A stretch of DNA of 24,510 nucleotides from a virus (Duplodnaviria; Heunggongvirae; Uroviricota; Caudoviricetes), in IMG/VR virus record IMGVR_UViG_2579778952_000010; one strand, written 5' to 3'. This document shows, piece by piece, positions 1 through 11,639 of the stretch. The first letter of the stretch is position 1, and each line of letters opens with the position of its first letter. A program made the translations under genes and the position numbers. A model generated the notes under the pieces. It saw nothing but the letters and a program-made list of their open reading frames with translations, was not told where the DNA came from and searched no databases.

Positions 1-1284
1 TTACAGACTTCTTGAAGGTTGCGCAGCTGTTACAACACGCGGTTGATCTTCCGCGGCATCTTCCAGTGCACTTAAATCACGGTCTTTCACTTCTGGCATT
101 TTCAGCGCAGAGATTAAACCAATCACTGAATATGCCATGATCATAATGGCGATCGGATACCAGGATTCCGTCATGGTGCAGAAAATCCCCGCCAGGATAG
201 GACCAAAACCGGAAGCGATAAGACCACCAATTTCTTTAGAAATGGCCATCCGGGTAAAGCGATTTTTACAGCCGAACATTTCTGCCATGGTAATGTTTTC
301 CAGAGCAAATAATCCCAGCACCGCACAGTTATGAATCACAATCAGTGCAACCATAATGGTGCTCGGGGCATAGCTTTTATCTACGATGATAGAAAGCATT
401 GGCCACGCCAGCACAATCGCAGAGGTATTCATAATAATATACGGGATCCGGCGACCAATTTTATCGGATAACCAACCAAGGAACGGAATGGTCATAAAGC
501 CGAGAATCGAACTGATCATCAATGCATCTGTTGGAATTGCTTTGTTAAACAATAACGTCTGCACTAAATAGCCTGCAAGGAAAGTCTGAATTAAACCTGA
601 GTTACCCGCCTGACCAAAACGCAGCCCTGTTGCCAGCCAGAAGGATTTGCTCTGGAACATGCTACCAGCAGGTGCAGGTTTTGCTGTCGGTTGGTTGCTG
701 TCGTTAACCTTCTCAAAGACCGGGCTTTCTTTCAGATTCATACGCAACCAGATAGCAAAGACCATCACGACAACGCTCGCCAGGAACGGTATACGCCATC
801 CCCACGCCAACAGTTCCTCTTTACTGAGAATGAAGAACATAAAGGCCCAGATTGCCGTTGCGCTCAAGGTTCCGCAGTTAGTCCCCATAGCAACAAATGA
901 GGAGATAATTCCGCGCTTACCTTTTGGCGCATATTCCGCCAGCATCGTACCGGCACCGGAAATTTCCGCGCCTGCCCCCAGCCCCTGAATAATACGCAGC
1001 GTCACCAGCAAAATTGGCGCAAACACACCAATTTGTGCATAGGTCGGCAGCACACCAATTAAGGTGGTACAGATCCCCATCATAGTGATGGTAATAAAGA
1101 GCACTTTTTTACGCCCGATTCTGTCGCCCATTTTGCCGAAAATAAATGCTCCGACAATACGCGCCACATAACCTGCACCATAGGTTCCCATTGCCAGAAT
1201 TAACGCCATTGCCGTTGATGATTCAGGAAAAAATATTTCATGAAACACTAACGCTGCGCCGAGCGAATATAACTGGAAATCCAT
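1..1284 (-). CDS. ydfJ: MFS metabolite:H+ symporter-type transporter, 5'-truncated host gene (N-terminal part of TM1 missing)
   Basis: 427-aa ORF with multiple hydrophobic helices and the MFS loop motif G-D-R-I-G-R-K-K after TM2. It begins MDFQLY..ALVF..FFP, i.e. inside the conserved EW[YF]DF..Y motif of TM1, and an in-frame TGA lies 3 nt upstream of the ATG (1288..1290). The sequence matches my recollection of E. coli YdfJ; identity not verified by search. Confidence 0.8.
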   Translation of the reverse strand: MDFQLYSLGAALVFHEIFFPESSTAMALILAMGTYGAGYVARIVGAFIFGKMGDRIGRKKVLFITITMMGICTTLIGVLPTYAQIGVFAPILLVTLRIIQGLGAGAEISGAGTMLAEYAPKGKRGIISSFVAMGTNCGTLSATAIWAFMFFILSKEELLAWGWRIPFLASVVVMVFAIWLRMNLKESPVFEKVNDSNQPTAKPAPAGSMFQSKSFWLATGLRFGQAGNSGLIQTFLAGYLVQTLLFNKAIPTDALMISSILGFMTIPFLGWLSDKIGRRIPYIIMNTSAIVLAWPMLSIIVDKSYAPSTIMVALIVIHNCAVLGLFALENITMAEMFGCKNRFTRMAISKEIGGLIASGFGPILAGIFCTMTESWYPIAIMIMAYSVIGLISALKMPEVKDRDLSALEDAAEDQPRVVTAAQPSRSL

Positions 1285-1675
1285 GATTCATAGATATTTT
1301 TTGCCATCCTGTGGATTTTTTGGTGTTTTCTGAGTTTTTTCAGATAGTTGTATTTTTTCTAAAAACTCCCGATCTCGATTTTACTGTTTGTCTGAGGTCT
1401 TTTTATGTCCCATATATGTCCCAAGGTGCCCCATGTAAATCCAATTCAACTCAACGCGTCCCTGCTCAATATTTTTACAAGGGGCTGGCATATCAGTGTT
1501 TTTATTGCGTAACGTCAAACGCTCGGATTAAGCGTGAATCATCAAGATTATTCAGTTCTTCCTTCATCTCCCGCTGACGTTGATAAATCTCGTGATTGCG
1601 ATCGACCTGCGCCTGCGCCATCTGTCAGCGCACCTGATATCACTACAGACATAGTTTTTCTCGCGATAAATTAAA
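1285..1675. other. Non-coding AT-rich region between host gene junction and tail fibre assembly gene; probable location of the prophage/host junction (att core)
   Basis: No convincing ORF. The host gene reading frame is broken immediately upstream of its ATG. The region is AT-rich with regularly spaced T-tracts. Confidence 0.35.
1297..1358. repeat. Array of four T6 tracts spaced about 19 bp apart
   Basis: TTTTTT at 1297-1302, 1316-1321, 1335-1340 and 1353-1358 on the + strand, read directly from the sequence. Confidence 0.6.
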
Positions 1676-2221
1676 TCAGGAAGAGGCTTCCGGAGAGACG
1701 GGCCATTCAATGGCGTTATATGAGGTTTTATCAGTGATGGGGCTGAAATCCATCGCCTGCAGCGATTTCGCGTAAATGCGGTACGCTTTCAGTTTTTCCC
1801 TGTCTTCGTCACTGATTAATCCCAGCAGCAGGTCTTTTTCCCATTCGCTGGTCATGATGCTGACCTGTTTTAACAGGGCATCACGCTCATCTTCCGCTTT
1901 AAGTTTGTAGTCAAAAACAAACTCACCACTGCGGTAAAACCAGTATCCCGGTACGGTGATACGGCGGTTAGCGGTAATATCCGGGAATTCAATGATACTG
2001 ACGTTAGTGGGTTCGATACCTGTCACATCCTTACCGACCCACACCACGCGCCCGCTGTCGTTATAGGCTGCTTTTATGGTGTCGCTGGCAAAATTCTTCT
2101 GTTCTTCATACCAGTTTTTGCCATCTTCCGAAAAAAGCCAGACAATACTATGCCGTTTTGTCATCTGATATTGCTCTGCCGTTTTCGGATTACCCGCAGT
2201 GATATTTTTTAAATGAAGCAT
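1676..2221 (-). CDS. Tail fibre assembly protein (Tfa family chaperone)
   Basis: 181-aa ORF immediately downstream of the tail fibre gene (fibre stop TAA, 2 nt, then ATG). C-terminus ...IEWPVSPE is typical of Tfa/Mu U-type fibre chaperones. Confidence 0.8.
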   Translation of the reverse strand: MLHLKNITAGNPKTAEQYQMTKRHSIVWLFSEDGKNWYEEQKNFASDTIKAAYNDSGRVVWVGKDVTGIEPTNVSIIEFPDITANRRITVPGYWFYRSGEFVFDYKLKAEDERDALLKQVSIMTSEWEKDLLLGLISDEDREKLKAYRIYAKSLQAMDFSPITDKTSYNAIEWPVSPEASS

Positions 2222-2223
2222 TG

Positions 2224-3234
2224 TTATACACTCGCCGCGTTATACCAGGTGCCATTAATTAATTTCTGAAGGGGTCTTGAGTACAGCTTTAATGACGTTG
2301 AAGGATGCACATCACCACCAACCACGACATACCCCGAAGGAACGGTAAAATCATCATCATAGTGTCCGTCGACCCTCTGGCCTCCCAGCCGGATATCCTC
2401 CACGCCCTCCGTCCTCTGCTTATAGCGGGCATCAAAATTTGCGTAGTCTGACGGTGTTACCCGCCCTGTAACGTTTACTGCTTTATTGCTCTGAATGCCG
2501 CCACTCTGAAAACGCAGCACATGCTGGTTATTCGCATAAACATCCAGAATGCCGTCACCATTCTGTTTCAGGCCGGTATCGTTATCCCCGAAAGCAATTG
2601 AGTTTCCGCCCAGCGCGTTCTGAACGCCGATACCCAGCGCACCATTGACCTGCGAACCACCGCCAACAGACACTTTATGCGACATGGATATTTCACCCGT
2701 CCGCAGATTAATAGTGAACGGGCGAAGTGGACCAATATCGCCATTCTCGCCCTGACCTTCACTGGTAGGGATAAGGTGCAGGCACTCTTCCGAGCGACGA
2801 AAAATCAGACCAAAGGCTTCGTTGAAAATCCTCAGTGCATTAACACCACGGATTTTCAGCTCCCCGGTCATGGTGTCTCCATCACGCTGAACAGCATTTT
2901 TTGCCTTGTCCACCGCAGGTTTTAATCCGAGGTTTTCAACAGCCTCATCACTGTCTTCGACATCCGAAAGATTATTTTTTATCAGCAATGCCTCTTCGTT
3001 AATCGCACTGCCAACCAGTAATAATATGGCTTTATATAACTGGTCGTGTTCCTCTTTATTCAGTTCTATCCCGGCCTTCTCAATGACACCACAGATTTCC
3101 TCCTGAAGGGCATCCCACATGGCACTGTTCAGCCAGGTGGCATGACGCCCTGTACGAATATTCCCGTCAGTAAATCCGTTCTTGCCCGGGCCAAATTTAT
3201 CTTTAACTGCTGTCGGAGTGTCAATTCTGTGCAT
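2224..3234 (-). CDS. Tail fibre protein
   Basis: 336-aa ORF with strong SD (GGGAGG, 6 nt, ATG). The N-terminal region ...ATWLNSAMWDALQEEICGVI... matches the conserved N-terminal domain of Mu S/lambda Stf-type fibres. Gly/Asn/Ser-rich beta-type C-terminal part. Confidence 0.8.
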   Translation of the reverse strand: MHRIDTPTAVKDKFGPGKNGFTDGNIRTGRHATWLNSAMWDALQEEICGVIEKAGIELNKEEHDQLYKAILLLVGSAINEEALLIKNNLSDVEDSDEAVENLGLKPAVDKAKNAVQRDGDTMTGELKIRGVNALRIFNEAFGLIFRRSEECLHLIPTSEGQGENGDIGPLRPFTINLRTGEISMSHKVSVGGGSQVNGALGIGVQNALGGNSIAFGDNDTGLKQNGDGILDVYANNQHVLRFQSGGIQSNKAVNVTGRVTPSDYANFDARYKQRTEGVEDIRLGGQRVDGHYDDDFTVPSGYVVVGGDVHPSTSLKLYSRPLQKLINGTWYNAASV

Positions 3235-3264
3235 ATTAAACCTCCCGTGAATGAAATATCAGAA

Positions 3265-4314
3265 TTATGTCCTTGCCTGATTAAACAATTCCGCTGTGAA
3301 AGTCAGTTCACCCTTTGTGAAGGGAGTGTTCCCTCCTGGTTGGGTCATAAAACTCTGTGAGACAGTCGTCCAGCTGTTTGTGTCGCTTTGTACGCCATTC
3401 TCTGTAATCGTTGCGCCTGCATGGCTGCCATTTTTCACTTTCCAGGCCAGGCGGTTATTGGGGGCATCAGCACCGCGGTAAGTGACCGAGGCCATAACAG
3501 CCACAACATCACTGTTGCTGTTATCCACCGCACCAAACGTGGCCTGTGCTGCATTCAGGGACGGCGAGAGCATCAGATATCCGGCCTCGCTGTCAGAGGT
3601 GTTCAGCCCCGTGACAATATCTTTATTCAGTGAGTTTTTGGCGCTTCCACCGGTAAATGCCATTACCGGGCTGTATCTGACCTCAATACTTCCGAGCAGG
3701 GCGGGTTCCGCGCTGTTATTTTTTCCGTATGCCACTGTTCCACAGTACATATCACCCAGCATTAACGTGCCGGATGCACCCGATGAAAAAATATTGTCAC
3801 CACTACCAATACTCACCTGAATTTTGTCAGTCCGGTCATCTGATACATAAAACGATGTATTTCCAACTAATGAGCGGTTGCAGTACAGACTGGCTGAGAC
3901 ATAGCCGTTTTCGTTTCGCGTTGCGAAAATTTCATAGTAATAACTGGCTGCTTCATCAGGATACGGGGTTGTAAATGAATAGCCATTAATCCTGATGTGG
4001 GATGGCGAAGATGAATATTTCTTTCCCGCACTTAATGTCAGACGAAATCCCAGCTGCACAGCTGAGGCTTTTAAGTCCGGAAGTGTGCTGTACAGTGTGA
4101 CATATGAGGGTGTCGTGAAAATCAGCCCCGTTCTTTCTACAGTATTTACGGCCTGAGTGCCACGACAGACGGATGTTACAGAACCGGACATATCATTGAT
4201 AAGCGTGACACCGTTTTCGTTCAGTGCTGAAATAATATTTGTTGAATAATAGTTCTCGCACAATCCCTCATTCGCCGGAATTTGTCGAAAACTTTCGAGT
4301 TTAATAATATTCAA
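3265..4314 (-). CDS. Hypothetical protein, Ser/Thr/Gly/Asn/Tyr-rich; possibly a second fibre/receptor-binding or accessory tail protein
   Basis: 349-aa ORF with TTG start preceded by AAGGAG (7-nt spacer), located between the gp48-like gene and the tail fibre gene. No family recognised by eye. Confidence 0.6.
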   Translation of the reverse strand: MNIIKLESFRQIPANEGLCENYYSTNIISALNENGVTLINDMSGSVTSVCRGTQAVNTVERTGLIFTTPSYVTLYSTLPDLKASAVQLGFRLTLSAGKKYSSSPSHIRINGYSFTTPYPDEAASYYYEIFATRNENGYVSASLYCNRSLVGNTSFYVSDDRTDKIQVSIGSGDNIFSSGASGTLMLGDMYCGTVAYGKNNSAEPALLGSIEVRYSPVMAFTGGSAKNSLNKDIVTGLNTSDSEAGYLMLSPSLNAAQATFGAVDNSNSDVVAVMASVTYRGADAPNNRLAWKVKNGSHAGATITENGVQSDTNSWTTVSQSFMTQPGGNTPFTKGELTFTAELFNQART

Positions 4315-4337
4315 AGCGGCTCTCCTTTTATTTTATG

Positions 4338-5297
4338 TCATTCGGACGTGACCACAGCAAAATGCAGTCCCGGGTGATTAATCAATAACGGTTCACGGGT
4401 TCTGCTGGCTGTCTGCAACTGCATACTGTTAACCGGTACGGGGGAGCGGGTCCTGTATCCCGTCTGCAACTGTGCGCTGTTCATGGTCATGGGGTCCGTT
4501 GTCGGCAGACCTGAGTGCAATTGCGCCCTGCTGAGTACCAGTGGTTCTGCCATCGGACGGGCGGCATAAAAGTTAATCCGGTTAATTGTCAGCGGCTTAC
4601 CTGTCAGTGCCGGAACAACCGCAAAATGAACACCTGTATGATTAATCGCTAATGGCTCAGTCGTCTTGTGTCCGGCCTGAAAGGAGAGGCTGTTTATAGT
4701 CAGGGCAGCTTGTTGCCCTTCACCAGACTCATCCGGATATGCAAAAAGGACAACAGTATGCGACGGACATAATTTATTAATCACGCACTCCGCAACCGTA
4801 TCACCCCACGTCCGGATCGGTGTGTTACAGGTGTCCGAACATGTCTGCCACTGAGCACCGGCATCCACCGGCAACGTCACACGCCAGAAATAACGCCAGC
4901 GATCACCCCATTCCGGATCGGGGCTTGCATCCAGGTGCTGGAACTGTTCGATCGTCACGCCGGTATATCCCAGCGCCTCAAGCTGCTCCAGGAAGAACTG
5001 CTCATTTATGCCACCAGCCACATTGGCTTTTGCTTCCAGCCGTTGCTGACGCTGGCGTAATGTCTGGGCTCCAACAGGAGAACAGGTGTCAGGTAAACCA
5101 TACAATTCTTCATAACGTTCAATCAGCTCTGTTGACTGACCAGGATCGATTTCAGCCATCAGTTCATCAGCCCGCTGATGAACACGTACAAGCGATGGTG
5201 CCAGACCATCAAGCACGCCGTCGGTATCGCTCCATGCAGGCCCCGGCGGCATCAGTCCGTACAGCAGCTTTTTATAATCATCCTGTAACGAATCCAT
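4338..5297 (-). CDS. Mu gp48-like baseplate/tail protein (DUF2313, YmfQ-like) with C-terminal repeat extension
   Basis: N-terminus MDSLQDDYKKLLYGLMPPGPAWSD... resembles DUF2313 tail proteins. Position immediately downstream of the baseplate J-like gene matches Mu gene order. Confidence 0.65.
   Translation of the reverse strand: MDSLQDDYKKLLYGLMPPGPAWSDTDGVLDGLAPSLVRVHQRADELMAEIDPGQSTELIERYEELYGLPDTCSPVGAQTLRQRQQRLEAKANVAGGINEQFFLEQLEALGYTGVTIEQFQHLDASPDPEWGDRWRYFWRVTLPVDAGAQWQTCSDTCNTPIRTWGDTVAECVINKLCPSHTVVLFAYPDESGEGQQAALTINSLSFQAGHKTTEPLAINHTGVHFAVVPALTGKPLTINRINFYAARPMAEPLVLSRAQLHSGLPTTDPMTMNSAQLQTGYRTRSPVPVNSMQLQTASRTREPLLINHPGLHFAVVTSE
4341..4661 (-). repeat. Imperfect intragenic direct repeats encoding the C-terminal about 107 aa of the gp48-like protein
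   Basis: Protein repeats EPLAINHTGVHFAVV / EPLLINHPGLHFAVV and NSAQLQTGYRTR / NSMQLQTASRTR; corresponding DNA repeats near 4358-4395 and 4619-4656. Confidence 0.6.
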
Positions 5298-6379
5298 TAT
5301 TTACTCCTTGCCGGGTCATAAGCCTGCCAGGTGATCTCGCCGAGCACCGGAAGCTCGGTCTCCCCCAGGTCAATATCCGATGAAGGGACGATTAACCGGT
5401 GGGCCACTTCACCAGCAGACAAACTGATGGCCTCACTGATTCTGGACAGATACATACGCCCCTCTGGCACACCATCCCGTAACATCAGTGCATTCAGCTC
5501 TGCTTTTATTGCAGTCCTGATCTGCGGTGTGTCTTTCGATAATGCAATCGTCATCGGGATGACTTTTTCTGTGGCACCGAATACATACAATCCGCTTCCG
5601 GCAACCGGTGTCAGAGGAAGAATGTGCTCTCTGACTGCATTAATGACGCTTTCATCCGGAGCCGGATGTTCCGGATCGTTTGTCGCCACCATCACCCCTA
5701 CCGTTCCTATTCCTCTCCAGTGACGGTATGTCCATGCGCGCGTAATACCAGGCACTTCTTTAGCCCAGACGACATAATCCCCGTCAGCCCCGCCCTGAGG
5801 CGTCCAGTAATACCGCTCAATGACGCGGGCGCGCCACGTTTCCAGATCTTCAGTATCGAATCCGCCGGTCAGGGTATCAGCCACACCAGACGACGGCAGA
5901 CCATTCACCGGCGTGACCAGGATTAATGCCGTACCGTCGTCAGCATTACCGACCGCACCTGCAGTTGAGCAGGCGATCGGCACGCGCAGGACACCACCGG
6001 AGCTGGTTGCATCGGCAGTTGCTGTGTACTGAACCAGGTCATCGCGCTGAATAACACTCCCGGCGGTCACCTTCAGGTCATCGCTGACATCTTCCCAGCG
6101 CATATACCCGCTGGCAGCCGTGGCCCCCTTGCGCGGACACCGTTTCATCGCAGCATGTCGCGCCAGCCAGGATTCATTACACCGGTCAGGCAGTATGTTC
6201 ATTGCCAGATAATCGATGTAACCGTAAACCGTATGCAGCGCCGCCGCATACACCTTTGCCCGCACGTCTTCATCCATGCGCCGGAGTGGGTCACTGACGT
6301 CCAGCCTGGCGAATAAATCGTTACGGAGCATACTGATATTTTCTGCCAGCGTCGGGCGCTGAAATTCACTGTCCGCCAT
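5297..6379 (-). CDS. Baseplate J-like protein (Mu gp47 family)
   Basis: 360-aa ORF; size, position between gp46-like and gp48-like genes and overall sequence character fit the baseplate J family. Start/stop overlaps with neighbours indicate translational coupling. Confidence 0.75.
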   Translation of the reverse strand: MADSEFQRPTLAENISMLRNDLFARLDVSDPLRRMDEDVRAKVYAAALHTVYGYIDYLAMNILPDRCNESWLARHAAMKRCPRKGATAASGYMRWEDVSDDLKVTAGSVIQRDDLVQYTATADATSSGGVLRVPIACSTAGAVGNADDGTALILVTPVNGLPSSGVADTLTGGFDTEDLETWRARVIERYYWTPQGGADGDYVVWAKEVPGITRAWTYRHWRGIGTVGVMVATNDPEHPAPDESVINAVREHILPLTPVAGSGLYVFGATEKVIPMTIALSKDTPQIRTAIKAELNALMLRDGVPEGRMYLSRISEAISLSAGEVAHRLIVPSSDIDLGETELPVLGEITWQAYDPARSK

Positions 6380-6794
6380 GCGTTATCGCACTCCACAGAT
6401 TATCAAAAGAAATCATTACCGGTCCGTCACGTCGCCAGAGAGTGATACTGTTACCCAGTTCATTAATCCCGGTGCGGCGGATATCCAGATCAATACGGGA
6501 CACCACACCGTCATCAATCATCCATTGCAGGCATTCGCGGATATACCCCCTTACCGTCTGCACCAGCTGATTGGTCAGTTTGCTGCGCTGAAGCAGCCAC
6601 AGTCGGGAGCCGTAACGGTCATTCTGTACCGCAGGCCAGGTATCCCCCCACCATCCCATCGGGACGTCGGCGTTGTCATCAGGCTCCGCCCGCCGCCAGG
6701 TAAACAGGGAAATCACCACGGCGCGGGTCAGCGGGTCCAGCGGTGCGCTGGCACTGGTGCGTTTGCCGTTCACCGTCAGCCACAGTTCCATCAT
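6366..6794 (-). CDS. Mu gp46-like baseplate protein
   Basis: 142-aa ORF between the gp45-like and J-like genes, overlapping both; size and position as in Mu-type baseplate modules. Confidence 0.6.
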   Translation of the reverse strand: MMELWLTVNGKRTSASAPLDPLTRAVVISLFTWRRAEPDDNADVPMGWWGDTWPAVQNDRYGSRLWLLQRSKLTNQLVQTVRGYIRECLQWMIDDGVVSRIDLDIRRTGINELGNSITLWRRDGPVMISFDNLWSAITHGGQ

Positions 6795-7339
6795 GCCTCC
6801 ATCGCTTTATCAGGTTTGTCGGTGTTACTGCCCTGACCGTTCTCTCTGTGACGATGCCCGTTATAGGCAAGCCGCATCGCTGACATGGTGGTGCCGCCGG
6901 AGTCGCACAGGTCTTTCACCTGTCCTGTCACTTCCAGGTCCATTTCAAAACGTGCTTCAGGTGCATTGCGAAACGTGATCGTTTTACCTGCACCGTCCAC
7001 CACGATCCCCTCCCGGGTCAGCGTCACGGACTGCCCCTGATCGTCATAGACAGCCACCTCACCCGTCTTCAGCCCTTTCAGGCGGTAGCGCCGATCCGAC
7101 ACCGTAACAACCACCGCATGAGAACGGTCGCCATCCGGAAACAACACCACCGCTTCCGCACCGCTGTTTGCGCTTGCGGTAAAACCGTAGGGTTCAAGAT
7201 GTTCAACCCCGGCTTTGGGTTCACCTGCAATCAGGGACACATCCACGGTCTGACATTTCGTGGCGGCACTGATGCTTTTCACCACGGCCCGACCAATCAG
7301 GCCGAGGAGTTGTCGCTGCATGACTTCAATCGTCCTCAT
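6791..7339 (-). CDS. Baseplate assembly protein V / Mu gp45-like spike-hub protein
   Basis: 182-aa ORF in conserved position upstream of the gp46-like gene; stop overlaps the next start. Confidence 0.65.
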   Translation of the reverse strand: MRTIEVMQRQLLGLIGRAVVKSISAATKCQTVDVSLIAGEPKAGVEHLEPYGFTASANSGAEAVVLFPDGDRSHAVVVTVSDRRYRLKGLKTGEVAVYDDQGQSVTLTREGIVVDGAGKTITFRNAPEARFEMDLEVTGQVKDLCDSGGTTMSAMRLAYNGHRHRENGQGSNTDKPDKAMEA

Positions 7340-8418
7340 CAGAACGGGTCCTCCTGTACTCTGGCTTTTTTCTTTTTCCGCGCGCCGGGAGCCTCGGGTT
7401 CAGGCAGATAAGCATCAGGCGGGCCGACACGGATTTCCGTCAGGGTGCCGTTCTGGTCCTGAGTAAACGTGACTTCCGAGACAAGCAGTTCGGTATTGTC
7501 GAAACCACAGACCGGATCAAAAACAATCACCCGCTGGTTGGGCTGCCACAGCGTACCGTTACCCTGTCGCCAGCCCTGCACCACATAGGTGGTTTCATCC
7601 GTCCGCGCCGCCCGTTGTCGGGCTTCAAAGTCAGCACGGGCAATACAACCTGCCCCCGTAGCCTGCCCTGTCTGCCTGATATACATCGGACGGTAACGGG
7701 CAATAAATGCGTCCTCTGTGCGGGCCCTCAGCGCGGTGGTGGTGGCCTCACCGAAATCATCGTCGTTTCCGGCACGCTGCCCCGCCACCTGGTAAACAGA
7801 AAACCGCTCCCGGATACTCTTCTCCGTATCGCAGGAAAGGATGTTTTCCCCGAGCACCAGCGCAGTATGCGCCCGCGTTGAGCCAATACCGCCAATCACC
7901 AGCCTGCCGTGCGGGTCGTCGTAAGCCAGTGCCTGCTGCTGACCGAGTATTTTGTTGATTACCTCAATCACCGTTTCACCATGATCGGGCTGGACGTCAG
8001 GAATAACACCCGACGGCGCACCGCTGTTCACCACCTCAATGCCGAAGGGCGCAGCAAGCGCCTGCGCAATCTGTACCAGCGATCGTCCGTTAAACTGTGT
8101 CGGTTCGGCTGCACAGTCAATCAGGTCAGCAGTCAGACTACGTCCGGCAATACCGGTGCTGACCGAACGGGCATCGTAACGAACGGGGGTCGCCTCCACC
8201 CAGCCGGTGATCACCAGTTCATCACCAATCAGCACCTCCACTTTTGAACCGTTTTTAATGCGCGGCTGAAGCGTGGTGATACCCTCACCCCCCGGCCACT
8301 GGCGGGGGATCTCCACACTGAAATCCCGTGCCAGCCGTTCAATACCGGCACCGATGCGCACCGATGTCCAGCCATTCCACTCCCGGCCATTTACCCGTAG
8401 CGTGACATTGTCGTTCAT
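7339..8418 (-). CDS. Mu P-like tail/baseplate hub protein
   Basis: 359-aa ORF between the N-like and gp45-like genes; order matches Mu N-P-gp45. Confidence 0.6.
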   Translation of the reverse strand: MNDNVTLRVNGREWNGWTSVRIGAGIERLARDFSVEIPRQWPGGEGITTLQPRIKNGSKVEVLIGDELVITGWVEATPVRYDARSVSTGIAGRSLTADLIDCAAEPTQFNGRSLVQIAQALAAPFGIEVVNSGAPSGVIPDVQPDHGETVIEVINKILGQQQALAYDDPHGRLVIGGIGSTRAHTALVLGENILSCDTEKSIRERFSVYQVAGQRAGNDDDFGEATTTALRARTEDAFIARYRPMYIRQTGQATGAGCIARADFEARQRAARTDETTYVVQGWRQGNGTLWQPNQRVIVFDPVCGFDNTELLVSEVTFTQDQNGTLTEIRVGPPDAYLPEPEAPGARKKKKARVQEDPF

Positions 8419-9785
8419 TGCACTGGCACCTTCAGAGGGATCACCGGCACAAAGCCGGGATGCGTAATGGCATTACGCCGGATAATGTCCTCGTCACGCG
8501 CCGCGTTATCAAACCAGGTCGCCGCCAGCACCAGCGCGGGTAAAACCTCATCCGGTGTGCGCTGAATGATCCGTGCAGACTGTTCAAGGCGCGTGTTGAT
8601 ATCCGCATTCAGATCTGCTTTCACCCGGCGCAGCGCCAGAAACAACGCATCACTGGTTGTACGGGACAACTCCTTATCAATTGCCGTATTCAGTGTGTCG
8701 CGAATGTCGGTCAGTTCTTCCCACGTTGGCAGGTCAACCGTGTTTTTCACCGCCGGTGCATTGTTCAGTGCCGGATGCGTGACGGAAGGCCAGCCAGTGC
8801 TCTGCGCAGGTGTTGTTGCCTGCCCCACTGTGGCATTCTGCATCACCGCGGAAGTTGTTGGCGCAGGCAATCGGGTGACGGCATACGCCGCTTCGCTGAT
8901 TGCGGTCGTACGAAGGGTGCTGGCAACCACGTTACGCTGCTGCGTCGCCGTGGCGGTGGTTTTACTGTCCGTTTTCCAGATGCCGCGCGGTTGCAGATCG
9001 CTGCCGAGGCTGACACCGGAAAGCGTTTTGATCATGGTGACAAGGTCGCTGGCGTTACCATAAAGGCGTTTCCCGGTACGCCACATTTTCTGCACCTGCT
9101 CAACGAAATTTTTGCCTGACGATGGTGGCGGCAGAAGTACCGAGATATCCCCCTGCAACAGCCTGGCAGCATCCGATACGGCAGAATCCACCACTTTCAT
9201 CGCATCAGAAACATACCCAAGCATTGTGCTGGCATTACCGACGACGTCGTTCTGCACAAAATCTGCCACGCCATCGACACTGAAACCACTGAAACTGTCA
9301 CTGATGCAGTCATCCAGTGCAGAACAGGATGACATCAGCGTCTGCGCCGTCGCCGCACCTGATGTGGGGTAAGAGAGTTCTCCCGCTTCGACAAACTTCA
9401 GGTCAAAGCGGACAATACGCCCTTCACTCTTCGATGTGCTGACCCGAACCTCCCCGTCAACACAGACTTTCAGCTCACCGTATGTCGGATGGACAAGCGT
9501 GCCGGGACCGGGTTTATTCAGCGCGTCAATCAGGCGATCGCGCTGGTCAAAGCAGTCATCTCCCACCACATAAGCCGTGATGGACGGGCGGAAAGTGACT
9601 TTTCCCAGATCTTCGGTATAGGGTTTGTCGCGGTTCGGGTATTCGTGCGTTTCCACACGGCGACCGGTTCCCGCACTTTCTTCTTCAACCTTAAACGGTA
9701 CGCCGCGAAATGACGCATCCTGAAGCCTGTCTTTCCACGTCATATAAACTCCGTACATAAAAAATCCCACCGGAGTGGGACTCAT
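8415..9785 (-). CDS. Mu N-like (DNA circularisation protein family) tail protein
   Basis: 456-aa ORF directly downstream of the tape measure gene, as in Mu-type tails. Confidence 0.6.
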   Translation of the reverse strand: MSPTPVGFFMYGVYMTWKDRLQDASFRGVPFKVEEESAGTGRRVETHEYPNRDKPYTEDLGKVTFRPSITAYVVGDDCFDQRDRLIDALNKPGPGTLVHPTYGELKVCVDGEVRVSTSKSEGRIVRFDLKFVEAGELSYPTSGAATAQTLMSSCSALDDCISDSFSGFSVDGVADFVQNDVVGNASTMLGYVSDAMKVVDSAVSDAARLLQGDISVLLPPPSSGKNFVEQVQKMWRTGKRLYGNASDLVTMIKTLSGVSLGSDLQPRGIWKTDSKTTATATQQRNVVASTLRTTAISEAAYAVTRLPAPTTSAVMQNATVGQATTPAQSTGWPSVTHPALNNAPAVKNTVDLPTWEELTDIRDTLNTAIDKELSRTTSDALFLALRRVKADLNADINTRLEQSARIIQRTPDEVLPALVLAATWFDNAARDEDIIRRNAITHPGFVPVIPLKVPVQ

Positions 9786-9803
9786 TAACAGATTAATTTT
9801 TCA

Positions 9804-11639
9804 TTACCTGCAAAAGCGCGTATAACCAACATCATGGCTGACATCAAAACCGCTGGATCGCGTTTCCATAACCCGCATACCCGGAGGCGAGTTCACAAAA
9901 GAGACCTTGATCTCACCATCAACTTTTGGCGCAGAAGCTTTGTTAATCATGAAGGGATTCGGGCCTGTGGCACCGGAGGCGTTGTTTGACTGAGCCGGAT
10001 CTACCGCCGGATAAGGTGTGTATCCCCGCGCCGGTATTCCCGTCCCATAAGCATCATAAGCACCCACGCCCCACTGCGCAGAGTTAATGGCATCGACCGT
10101 GTCACCGGAACTGTCGGTAAACCACTCAATAATGGGCTTCAGCTTGTCCCACATATCCTGAAACCACTTAACAACCGGTCCCCAGTTATTGATCACCATT
10201 CCCAGCGGCGACCAGGCAAAAACTTTCTTCAGAAGTTCCCAGCCAGCCTCAAAATAAGGACCAATGGTTTCCCAGAGCTTCTTGAAATAAGGTCCGACAA
10301 CATCCCAGTTGGTGATAATTAATCCCGCAGCCAGGGCTATCGCCGTCGCAATCATGCCAATCGGCGTCATCGACATGATCCTGCTGACGATACTGATGGC
10401 ACTGCCCACGCCCATCAATCCCAGTTTCAGAATCGCAAGACCGGCAGCAAGCCCGACGACGCCGCGAATAACCCGGGGATTTTGATCCGCAAACTTCGTG
10501 AATTTTTCCCCCAACTCCCCCAGCCATTGCGTGATATTTTTGGCGTCACCAGAAAATGCGCCGCCAATAGCCGCAAGGCCGTTAGTTGCGGTCCCTGTCA
10601 TTGCCTCCCACAGGTTGGACAGCGTACCAAGCTGTGCCTGAACACGTTTATTCAGGCTGGCCTGTTTATTCATCTTCTGCTGGATCTGATCGTAACCATC
10701 CTTTCCTTTATCGATCAGGGCATTGACCACCTGAAGGGTTTCGGCATCATCACCAAATATTGCCTTAAGTACACCTGTTCGCTTAACGTCGGTCAGTTTT
10801 CGCAGCTTTGCCAGTTGCCTGAACATGTTATCAAGACCGCCAAAACTCCCTTTGCCGTCAGTAAAATCGAGCTGCACTCCGAGTTTCTGGCGGGCCATGA
10901 TTTTATTGACGTCCCTGATTTTCTTAACGCTTAATCCGGACTGGATAACTTTTCGCAGGGCGTTACCTGCCGACTCCCCGTTCATCCCCATCTGATCCAT
11001 CATGACGCTGATGGGGGCAAGGCTCTGTGCAGCCTGAAGACCGTCCTTGTTCACCATCTTCAGAACAGAGCTGGTTTTAGTGAAGAAGGACAACATGTTG
11101 GTATCGTCAACGCCCAGATAAAACGCCTTCTGGATAGTGTCGAACAGCCCCATCATGTCTTCTGACGCCGTTCCGGTAGCATCCTGCATCTTTGCGGCAA
11201 ACTCGGCAGCCGCTTCCGGTGTTTTTTTCAGTTGTACCGCAAGATAAGCTGTCGCTTTACCCACACCGCCAAGAATGTTTTCTGCCGGGATCCCCTGACG
11301 CACCAGCATCTGCATCATGTTCTGGAAATCAGCCGTTGTACCGGGTAGCTGGTTACCCAGGCCAATAGCCAGTTTATTGATGTCCTGAAAGCGCTTTCCA
11401 ATCTCGCCGTTCGCATCCATCATGGCGACTTTCAGCCCGGTGGCGGCGTTTTCCTGATCGGCATAAGATTTCAGGGAAAGCGTCAGACCCGCTGCCAGTC
11501 CGCCACCAAGCGCCAGCCCACCCTGTGACGCTTCTTCCGCCTGGCGTTTAAATCCCCGGATTTTCTTTTGCATTTTCGACAGCGCGGGAGAAAGCCTGTC
11601 GACACCGGTGATCAACGCCTTAAGCTCAAATTCAGCCAT
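9804..11639 (-). CDS. Tail tape measure protein
   Basis: 611-aa ORF, Ala/Gly/Leu-rich with a hydrophobic segment and Trp-rich C-terminal part; lies directly downstream of the chaperone with its programmed frameshift. Confidence 0.8.
   Translation of the reverse strand: MAEFELKALITGVDRLSPALSKMQKKIRGFKRQAEEASQGGLALGGGLAAGLTLSLKSYADQENAATGLKVAMMDANGEIGKRFQDINKLAIGLGNQLPGTTADFQNMMQMLVRQGIPAENILGGVGKATAYLAVQLKKTPEAAAEFAAKMQDATGTASEDMMGLFDTIQKAFYLGVDDTNMLSFFTKTSSVLKMVNKDGLQAAQSLAPISVMMDQMGMNGESAGNALRKVIQSGLSVKKIRDVNKIMARQKLGVQLDFTDGKGSFGGLDNMFRQLAKLRKLTDVKRTGVLKAIFGDDAETLQVVNALIDKGKDGYDQIQQKMNKQASLNKRVQAQLGTLSNLWEAMTGTATNGLAAIGGAFSGDAKNITQWLGELGEKFTKFADQNPRVIRGVVGLAAGLAILKLGLMGVGSAISIVSRIMSMTPIGMIATAIALAAGLIITNWDVVGPYFKKLWETIGPYFEAGWELLKKVFAWSPLGMVINNWGPVVKWFQDMWDKLKPIIEWFTDSSGDTVDAINSAQWGVGAYDAYGTGIPARGYTPYPAVDPAQSNNASGATGPNPFMINKASAPKVDGEIKVSFVNSPPGMRVMETRSSGFDVSHDVGYTRFCR

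Follow-up and report, generated by a model that had tools for sequence, protein, structure and literature searches.

The gene for a 349-aa protein between the baseplate and tail fibre genes of an Escherichia coli prophage belongs to a two-part cassette, of which the second part is a tandem-repeat extension at the C-terminus of the preceding baseplate protein, gp48. The host range of phages is set by their tail appendages, and the engineering of phages and tailocins needs knowledge of how such appendages are attached. If our interpretation is right, the cassette would represent a compact and portable attachment, in which a peptide-repeat tether and a globular lectin-fold head are placed behind at least four unrelated anchors. 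It would also provide a testable function for PHROG 8291 and, by fold, for proteins of ~350 aa in the virions of Casjensviridae and other siphophages. Should the binding model prove wrong, we would be left with an ordinary, uncharacterised accessory gene of the tail. The synteny evidence presented below is solid, and the mechanism is inferred.

The window, the whole stretch of 24,510 nucleotides that was analysed, is an E. coli prophage with a Mu-like tail, integrated in ydfJ. The nearest complete genomes are those of human-stool E. coli, largely of the ETEC type. On the minus strand, the genes are arranged in the order gp45 (6791-7339), gp46 (6366-6794), gp47, gp48, the 349-aa gene (3265-4314), the tail fibre gene, the Caudo_TAP chaperone gene and the ydfJ remnant. 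The gp47 product is a Baseplate_J wedge protein (5297-6379, minus strand; PF04865, E = 1.7e-53) and the gp48 product is a YmfQ-type baseplate wedge protein of 319 aa (4338-5297, minus strand; PF10076 at residues 13-187, E = 7.3e-25). The fibre has 336 aa and an 'MHRIDTPTAV' N-terminal domain (2224-3234, minus strand; phrog_6859, E = 5e-183; PF20744 gp37_trimer), and the fibre assembly chaperone, hereafter TAP, is encoded at 1676-2221 (minus strand; PF02413 Caudo_TAP, E = 4.6e-22). Gene calls, Pfam and PHROG bear out the Mu-type order of the preliminary description, in which the 349-aa gene was placed between the gp48-like and fibre genes. In the annotation, a truncated ydfJ (MFS transporter; 1-1284, minus strand) borders the prophage, and a fragment of a tail-fibre-chaperone-related DUF4376 gene is located 3' of the TAP gene (1502-1621, minus strand). 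These two features mark the attachment site and the relic of an earlier fibre-module exchange.

The 349-aa open reading frame is a real gene under constraint. It extends on the minus strand from a TTG start at 4312-4314 to a stop codon at 3265-3267. A Shine-Dalgarno sequence, AGGAG, can be read at 4322-4326 (minus strand), 7 nt before the start, and 44% of the residues are Ser, Thr, Gly, Asn or Tyr. The TTG start, strong Shine-Dalgarno sequence, length and residue bias noted earlier are all confirmed. Residues 1-349 of the protein align to profile positions 1-349 of 349 of phrog_8291, a group of unknown function (E = 8.6e-243). The protein has 26 homologue clusters, and comparison with nine homologues of 41-99% identity gave dN/dS values of 0.18-0.23, indicating purifying selection. 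The gene is regarded as real because of this full-length PHROG match, the homologue clusters and the low dN/dS. Searches of Pfam, NCBIfam, PADLOC and PDB sequences with the protein returned no match, and the PADLOC defence models gave 0 families at E values up to 1. Around the gene, which is packed tightly in the tail cluster, a promoter and a terminator were sought and no convincing one was detected. Both the TTG start and the Shine-Dalgarno sequence are kept in 9 of the 10 enterobacterial homologues checked. Conservation of the TTG (window 4312-4314 and the homologous loci) persists across 50-60% protein divergence, which suggests that a particular level of translation, probably a low one, is selected for.

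A related E. coli prophage without the cassette (L070) encodes a gp48 of 196 aa that is followed directly by the MHRIDT fibre. By blastn, window positions 5903-4728 correspond to L070 5395-6570 at 88%, and positions 3244-2501 correspond to L070 6568-7311 at 92%. The 1,483 bp between these two matches (3245-4727) comprise the repeat extension and the 349-aa gene, and are a single clean insertion at the exact gp48/fibre junction. The description of the gene as an extra one therefore holds against a prophage that lacks it. Its insertion between gp48 and the fibre also stands, except that the gene did not come as a stand-alone unit, since the inserted segment includes the last third of the gp48 ORF. 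The GC content of the gene is 44-52%, compared with 57-60% for the baseplate genes. The distal tail genes as a whole (the 349-aa gene, fibre and TAP; window 1600-4800) have 44-53% GC against 57-60% in the baseplate core (5600-8000), with the mosaic boundary roughly at the junction between the gp48 core and its extension.

The extended gp48 consists of a core, from residue 1 to about 190, and the repeat extension, 319 aa in all. Its PF10076 domain (88 bits against a cut-off of 37.4) and its position after Baseplate_J identify it as a Phage_Mu_Gp48/YmfQ protein; the domain does not reach into the C-terminal 122 aa. Of the 119 YmfQ homologues found, nearly all (~95%) have 193-196 aa. Among them are E. 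coli orthologues of 196 aa, 92-93% identical over the shared part, which are without the extension. According to our unit parsing, the extension (residues 198-319; 4341-4706, minus strand) contains seven tandem units of 17-20 aa. The consensus of 38 distinct units is E-P-L-V-I-N-R-A-Q-L-Q-S-[A/G]-x-x-T-x, and an end-type unit reads P-L-L-I-N-H-P-G-L-H-F-A-V-V. Two such 'HFAVV' end-type units are present in gp48, at residues 215-228 and 303-316. TRF detected no tandem repeat in the DNA of the module; the repetition is conserved solely in the protein sequence, where a dN/dS of 0.25 indicates purifying selection. No Pfam model matched the extension. In the AlphaFold2 model the extension has a pLDDT below 50. 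This would fit a segment that is disordered on its own and folds only on a partner, and it is weak evidence because the whole gp48 model is poor (pLDDT 54.6).

In PGAP/RefSeq, the extended gp48 bears the label 'YmfQ family protein, incomplete, missing C-terminus' (window 4338-5297, minus strand; L001 11018-12000). The protein is thereby called a truncated pseudogene and the repeat region is left unannotated, yet the ORF is intact at 319 aa. The closest cluster to the extended gp48 is 99% identical, also 319 aa long, and holds 179 member sequences. The pseudogene call looks like a systematic mis-annotation that arises from the non-family extension.

For 32 loci, drawn from IMG/VR, E. albertii, Raoultella and E. 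coli, we read the gene that precedes the homologue. Apart from two contigs, this gene encodes 4-7 repeats at its end, and 12-30 nt separate it from the start of the homologue. The two exceptional contigs have the order gp48 with repeats, fibre, TAP and homologue, the repeat-bearing gp48 being two genes upstream. A repeat module lies near the homologue in every relative for which upstream sequence is available. The repeat-bearing anchors are Phage_Mu_Gp48 (four subtypes), Tail_P2_I, phage_tail_N (lambda Stf) and Phage_tail_fib (P2 gpH). The repeat module accompanies the homologue across at least four unrelated virion anchors.

Two prophages with more distant homologues, found by profile search, illustrate the arrangement outside the Mu-like context; their repeats are diverged. 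P2 gpI usually has about 176 aa. The gpI (Tail_P2_I) of a P2-like prophage has 300 aa, with an extension made of four copies of VPVKAINGTxINAGNVLS and an end unit, and is followed by the homologue, a gpH-type fibre and TAP. In a lambdoid prophage, gpJ and Lom precede an Stf-N protein that ends in four copies of EPLSINRLYLQSGAKTQ, and then the homologue follows. A further lambdoid prophage, of E. coli TD225-C4 (L075, 7007-10863), has gpJ, Stf-N with repeats, the 349-aa protein, a Mu-type 'MHRIDTPTAV' fibre and TAP. This type of fibre normally docks on gp48, which is absent from that siphophage-type tail.

The remote homologues (15-40% identity) are accompanied by diverged repeats, which are either fused or encoded as free ORFs of 64-90 aa. 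Free-standing repeat-only ORFs of this size lie directly upstream of the homologue in three contexts (L002, L076 and L080), and they show that the repeats do not always form a tether to an anchor. A 257-aa Stf-N protein of E. coli (L002, 7002-7775) and a 776-aa collagen-like fibre from a metagenome (L076, 2661-4991) have a similar C-terminal domain, '...F(T/I)xLPAGRAM...GG...W...'. Both are encoded upstream of a free repeat ORF and the homologue; these follow immediately in L002, and after a 229-aa ORF in L076.

As the converse test, IMG/VR was scanned with a degenerate DNA pattern requiring three units in register. Where the contig reached far enough, no genuine repeat module was found on contigs lacking the gene. 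Pattern matches on L039, L042, L045, L046, L049, L057, L064 and L067 were discarded on reading as unrelated repetitive proteins. When homologues were searched with the repeat module alone, one fragment was returned. Near-identical copies of the protein (90-97%) sit behind gp48-type modules and behind Stf-N/gpH-N-type modules, the repeats of which are ~38% identical, so any docking code would have to be loose. The number of repeats is polymorphic. Two near-identical gp48-type anchors (L024 4788-5978 and L025 4839-5978) differ by exactly one 17-aa repeat (396 versus 379 aa), and in a third (L026) the units are combined differently.

The family is very small and has a narrow distribution: 59 of 5,426 complete E. 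coli genomes have it, often as 2-5 copies in different prophages, and a scan of genome contigs added E. albertii only. The hosts of its Mu-like, P2-like and lambda-like prophages are E. coli, E. albertii and Raoultella. Distant homologues were detected only by profile search, with 19 matches among 1.84 billion representatives. One candidate, the cadherin-like repeat protein P0043, was rejected as a spurious profile match. A tblastn search with the protein and two remote homologues against 50,697 phage genomes gave no match, and two metagenome scans also returned nothing. Family members are annotated everywhere as hypothetical, and literature searches for the family or its accessions found no paper. 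The pairing of repeats and protein is likewise absent from Pfam and NCBIfam and is not mentioned in the papers searched.

An AlphaFold2 model of the protein was built from a 24-sequence alignment. The model is confident and all-beta, with a pLDDT of 89.3 and a monomer pTM of 0.89. The beta-rich regions span roughly residues 40-195 and 215-349, and parts of the model match ConA-like jelly rolls, having the predicted curved beta-sandwich of that fold. The protein is thus predicted to be a phage tail protein of lectin-type (sugar-binding-type) fold, and the fold alone is no proof of sugar binding. No sequence similarity is detectable between the two halves of the protein. The most conserved segment of the family is the N-terminal MNIIxLEGFRQIP. 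Residues R91, Y125, Y126 and E128 are conserved, and K99 is invariant in 24 close members; the invariant set further includes D188, Y190, N238, Y246, N287 and W315. The K99 of the enterobacterial clade is absent from the remote homologues P0030 and P0034, and the family has no invariant His. No fibre or spike domain of Pfam or PHROG was found in the protein, and the model, built as a monomer, is a compact all-beta protein that does not suggest a trimeric fibre or spike. The fibre is the neighbouring 336-aa protein matching phrog_6859. The protein also differs from the Tfa/Caudo_TAP chaperones, having no PF02413 or PF16778 match and 349 aa compared with about 150-200 aa. In the preliminary description, this point of the Mu gene order was viewed as one where alternative receptor-binding proteins or host-range determinants are typically acquired. 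This view is partly supported; the feature is not confined to the Mu order, as homologues occur behind other anchors in lambdoid and P2-like prophages.

Foldseek searches against predicted viral structures returned matches over the whole length of the model, with E values of 1e-14 to 1e-9 and TM scores of 0.55-0.67. The matched proteins are mostly uncharacterised siphophage proteins of ~350 aa in phage tail clusters, including those of Serratia phage JS26, Providencia phages Kokobel1 and Stilesk, Cronobacter phage JC01 and Proteus phage Saba. The best match, A0A7T3PGU3, agrees in length (352 aa) and in product name with AchV4_0026 of Achromobacter phage vB_AchrS_AchV4 (Casjensviridae). At the distal end of that phage's tail cluster, the gene is flanked by two paralogues. 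AchV4_0026 has been found in virions by LC-MS/MS, with 14 peptides and 35.5% coverage (PMC7996906). The N-termini of the three paralogues AchV4_0025-0027, which read MTLLHMDGFDQF, MIRFMDGFDQE and MAIIDLEGFERL, echo MNIIxLEGFRQIP. The paralogues share with our family the N-terminal pattern M-x-I-I-x-[LM]-[ED]-G-F and the collinear motifs YYYE...LY-x-N and GD-x-Y. By profile comparison, AchV4_0025-0027 show no significant similarity to the family (hhalign E 0.29; hmmsearch E above 60), and the link is one of fold-plus-motif similarity, not proven homology. AchV4 differs from the prophages described here in that it is a lytic siphophage with three tandem paralogues and without a fusion to a gp48 or Stf anchor. 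Directly after these paralogues comes AchV4_0028 (578 aa; L079, MW269554, 19255-20991). Nearly the whole of this protein is made up of short tandem repeats, of which there are three kinds: 'QFAQVL' (x5), a ~16-aa unit '(T/A)RVTxTSxxLLxxL' (x6) and a ~22-aa unit '(F/W)PDPxxPxS...' (x10). AchV4_0028 may be a repeat scaffold that parallels the E. coli module.

The nearest functional parallels of the cassette are branched or adaptor-mounted receptor-binding systems and lactococcal baseplates. The former are known from the T5-like phage DT57C (LtfA/LtfB) and, as anchor-and-branch tailspike systems, from G7C, CBA120 and Klebsiella phages. The cassette resembles them in that a virion-anchored protein would dock a second, separately encoded binder and the pair is exchanged as a module. 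Those systems use folded docking domains, the T4 gp10-like domain for example, and trimeric fibres or spikes, whereas the cassette would use disordered 17-aa repeats and a globular jelly-roll passenger. No gp10-like domain was detected here. In the lactococcal phage TP901-1, BppU holds several BppL receptor-binding proteins, and CBM-type accessory modules offer a further point of reference. The likeness to TP901-1 lies in a scaffold protein with multiple small beta-sandwich, saccharide-binding heads at the tail periphery. The two systems have no sequence or domain relationship, however, and BppL, a trimer, is bound to a folded domain of BppU, in phages of Gram-positive hosts. Mu gp48 (BW3) with its fibre gp49 is a further close system, and the upstream protein here is a bona fide PF10076 member. 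Mu gp48, like about 95% of the YmfQ homologues found, has 193-196 aa and is without both the repeat extension and the extra gene. In the Mu wedge, gp46 and gp48 are present once each and gp47 twice, and a loop of gp48 (residues 133-155) is the docking site of the trimeric fibre (PMC11915804).

Because each wedge has one gp48 and the fibre docks on it, a gp48 extension is a natural place for a second appendage that does not disturb the fibre. We propose, with moderate confidence, that the repeats tether the 349-aa protein to each baseplate wedge, where it would serve in accessory adhesion. The 122-aa array grafted onto the C-terminus of gp48 would act as the tether, and six gp48 would be present per baseplate. 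While unfolded, the array would capture the jelly-roll protein, and the contact would probably involve the highly conserved N-terminus of that protein (MNIIxLEGFRQIP) and the hydrophobic end-type units ('xFAV'). As a result, one or more lectin-like heads would be present on each wedge besides its normal fibre. These heads would confer extra, probably glycan-directed, host adhesion, by which the host range would be modulated. The repeat extension could in this way explain how a protein without a fibre-type anchor domain stays on the tail. We infer the binding of the protein to the repeats, its presence in virions, its ligand and its stoichiometry; virion presence rests on the fold analogue AchV4_0026, as no isolated and sequenced phage carries the family. 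The free-standing repeat ORFs speak against this reading, and the conserved weak TTG start makes many copies per anchor unlikely.

The repeats might do more than tether a single partner. In a bolder version, to which we give rather little weight, the array would be a multivalent scaffold. One lectin-fold monomer would be bound by each unit, or by each 'xFAV' unit, for instance through addition of a beta-strand, and the result would be a bottle-brush of glycan-binding heads. As a mere linear peptide repeat, the docking element could be transferred by recombination to any virion anchor (Mu gp48, P2 gpI, lambda Stf-N or P2 gpH-N) or exist as a free peptide, and would thus form a general plug-in. 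Contractile and non-contractile tails may share such a device, of which AchV4_0025-0027 with AchV4_0028 might represent an elaborate form.

The protein might instead be a tail-borne polysaccharide-degrading enzyme, such as a jelly-roll lyase or glycanase depolymerase acting on capsule or O-antigen, and not a passive binder. We consider this doubtful. Jelly-roll polysaccharide lyases (PL7, PL14 and PL36) have a catalytic set in a cleft, made of a Tyr acid, a His or Lys base and Arg/Gln neutralisers. The structural matches to enzymes have 5-13% identity and are no stronger than those to non-catalytic CBMs and lectins, and no enzyme family is matched by sequence. The missing invariant His and the absence of K99 from P0030 and P0034 point in the same direction.

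About equally doubtful is a role as a non-virion assembly factor, that is, a chaperone that would fold or protect the repeat extension, or help in mounting the fibre, and be released before maturation. The strict synteny with the repeats would fit a dedicated chaperone just as well as it fits a tethered protein, and the apparent disorder of the repeats on their own and the conserved weak TTG start are compatible with it. A length of 349 aa and a two-part jelly-roll model are, however, unlike known fibre chaperones, and the prophage already has a gene for a Caudo_TAP chaperone. The closest analogue by structure is found in virions (PMC7996906). Moreover, in several lambdoid contexts the homologue is the last tail gene after an Stf N-terminal anchor, with no distal fibre, so that under the chaperone reading the anchor would carry nothing.

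Slightly less probable again is that the protein serves as a connector or hub, which would bridge the repeat tether and the 'MHRID' fibre on tails without the gp48 docking loop. The gene order of TD225-C4, where there is no gp48 to dock on, is what favours such a bridge, but that order could simply come from a co-transferred block. In L070, a fibre of this type comes directly after an unextended gp48 of 196 aa and is thus independent of the protein. In addition, the gene has no fibre after it in many contexts (L002, L006, L035 and L082). A tethered accessory adhesin remains the reading we prefer.

That the gene is a moron, lysogenic-conversion or defence gene that merely lies in the tail operon is very improbable: it was acquired by insertion, is found mostly in human ETEC-type strains and has a GC content below that of the baseplate genes, but the lower GC is also seen in the fibre and chaperone genes, searches for a promoter or terminator belonging to the gene and for a PADLOC match gave none, no signal peptide is evident from reading the N-terminus, and the gene is always co-oriented and linked with tail-anchor proteins in myo- and sipho-type prophages.

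The prophage without the cassette, L070, carries a different modular side appendage on its contractile tail. After the fibre and TAP genes, positions 8358-10179 hold the gene for an Stf-N coiled-coil protein of 311 aa and two further ORFs, one of 100 aa and one of at least 195 aa.
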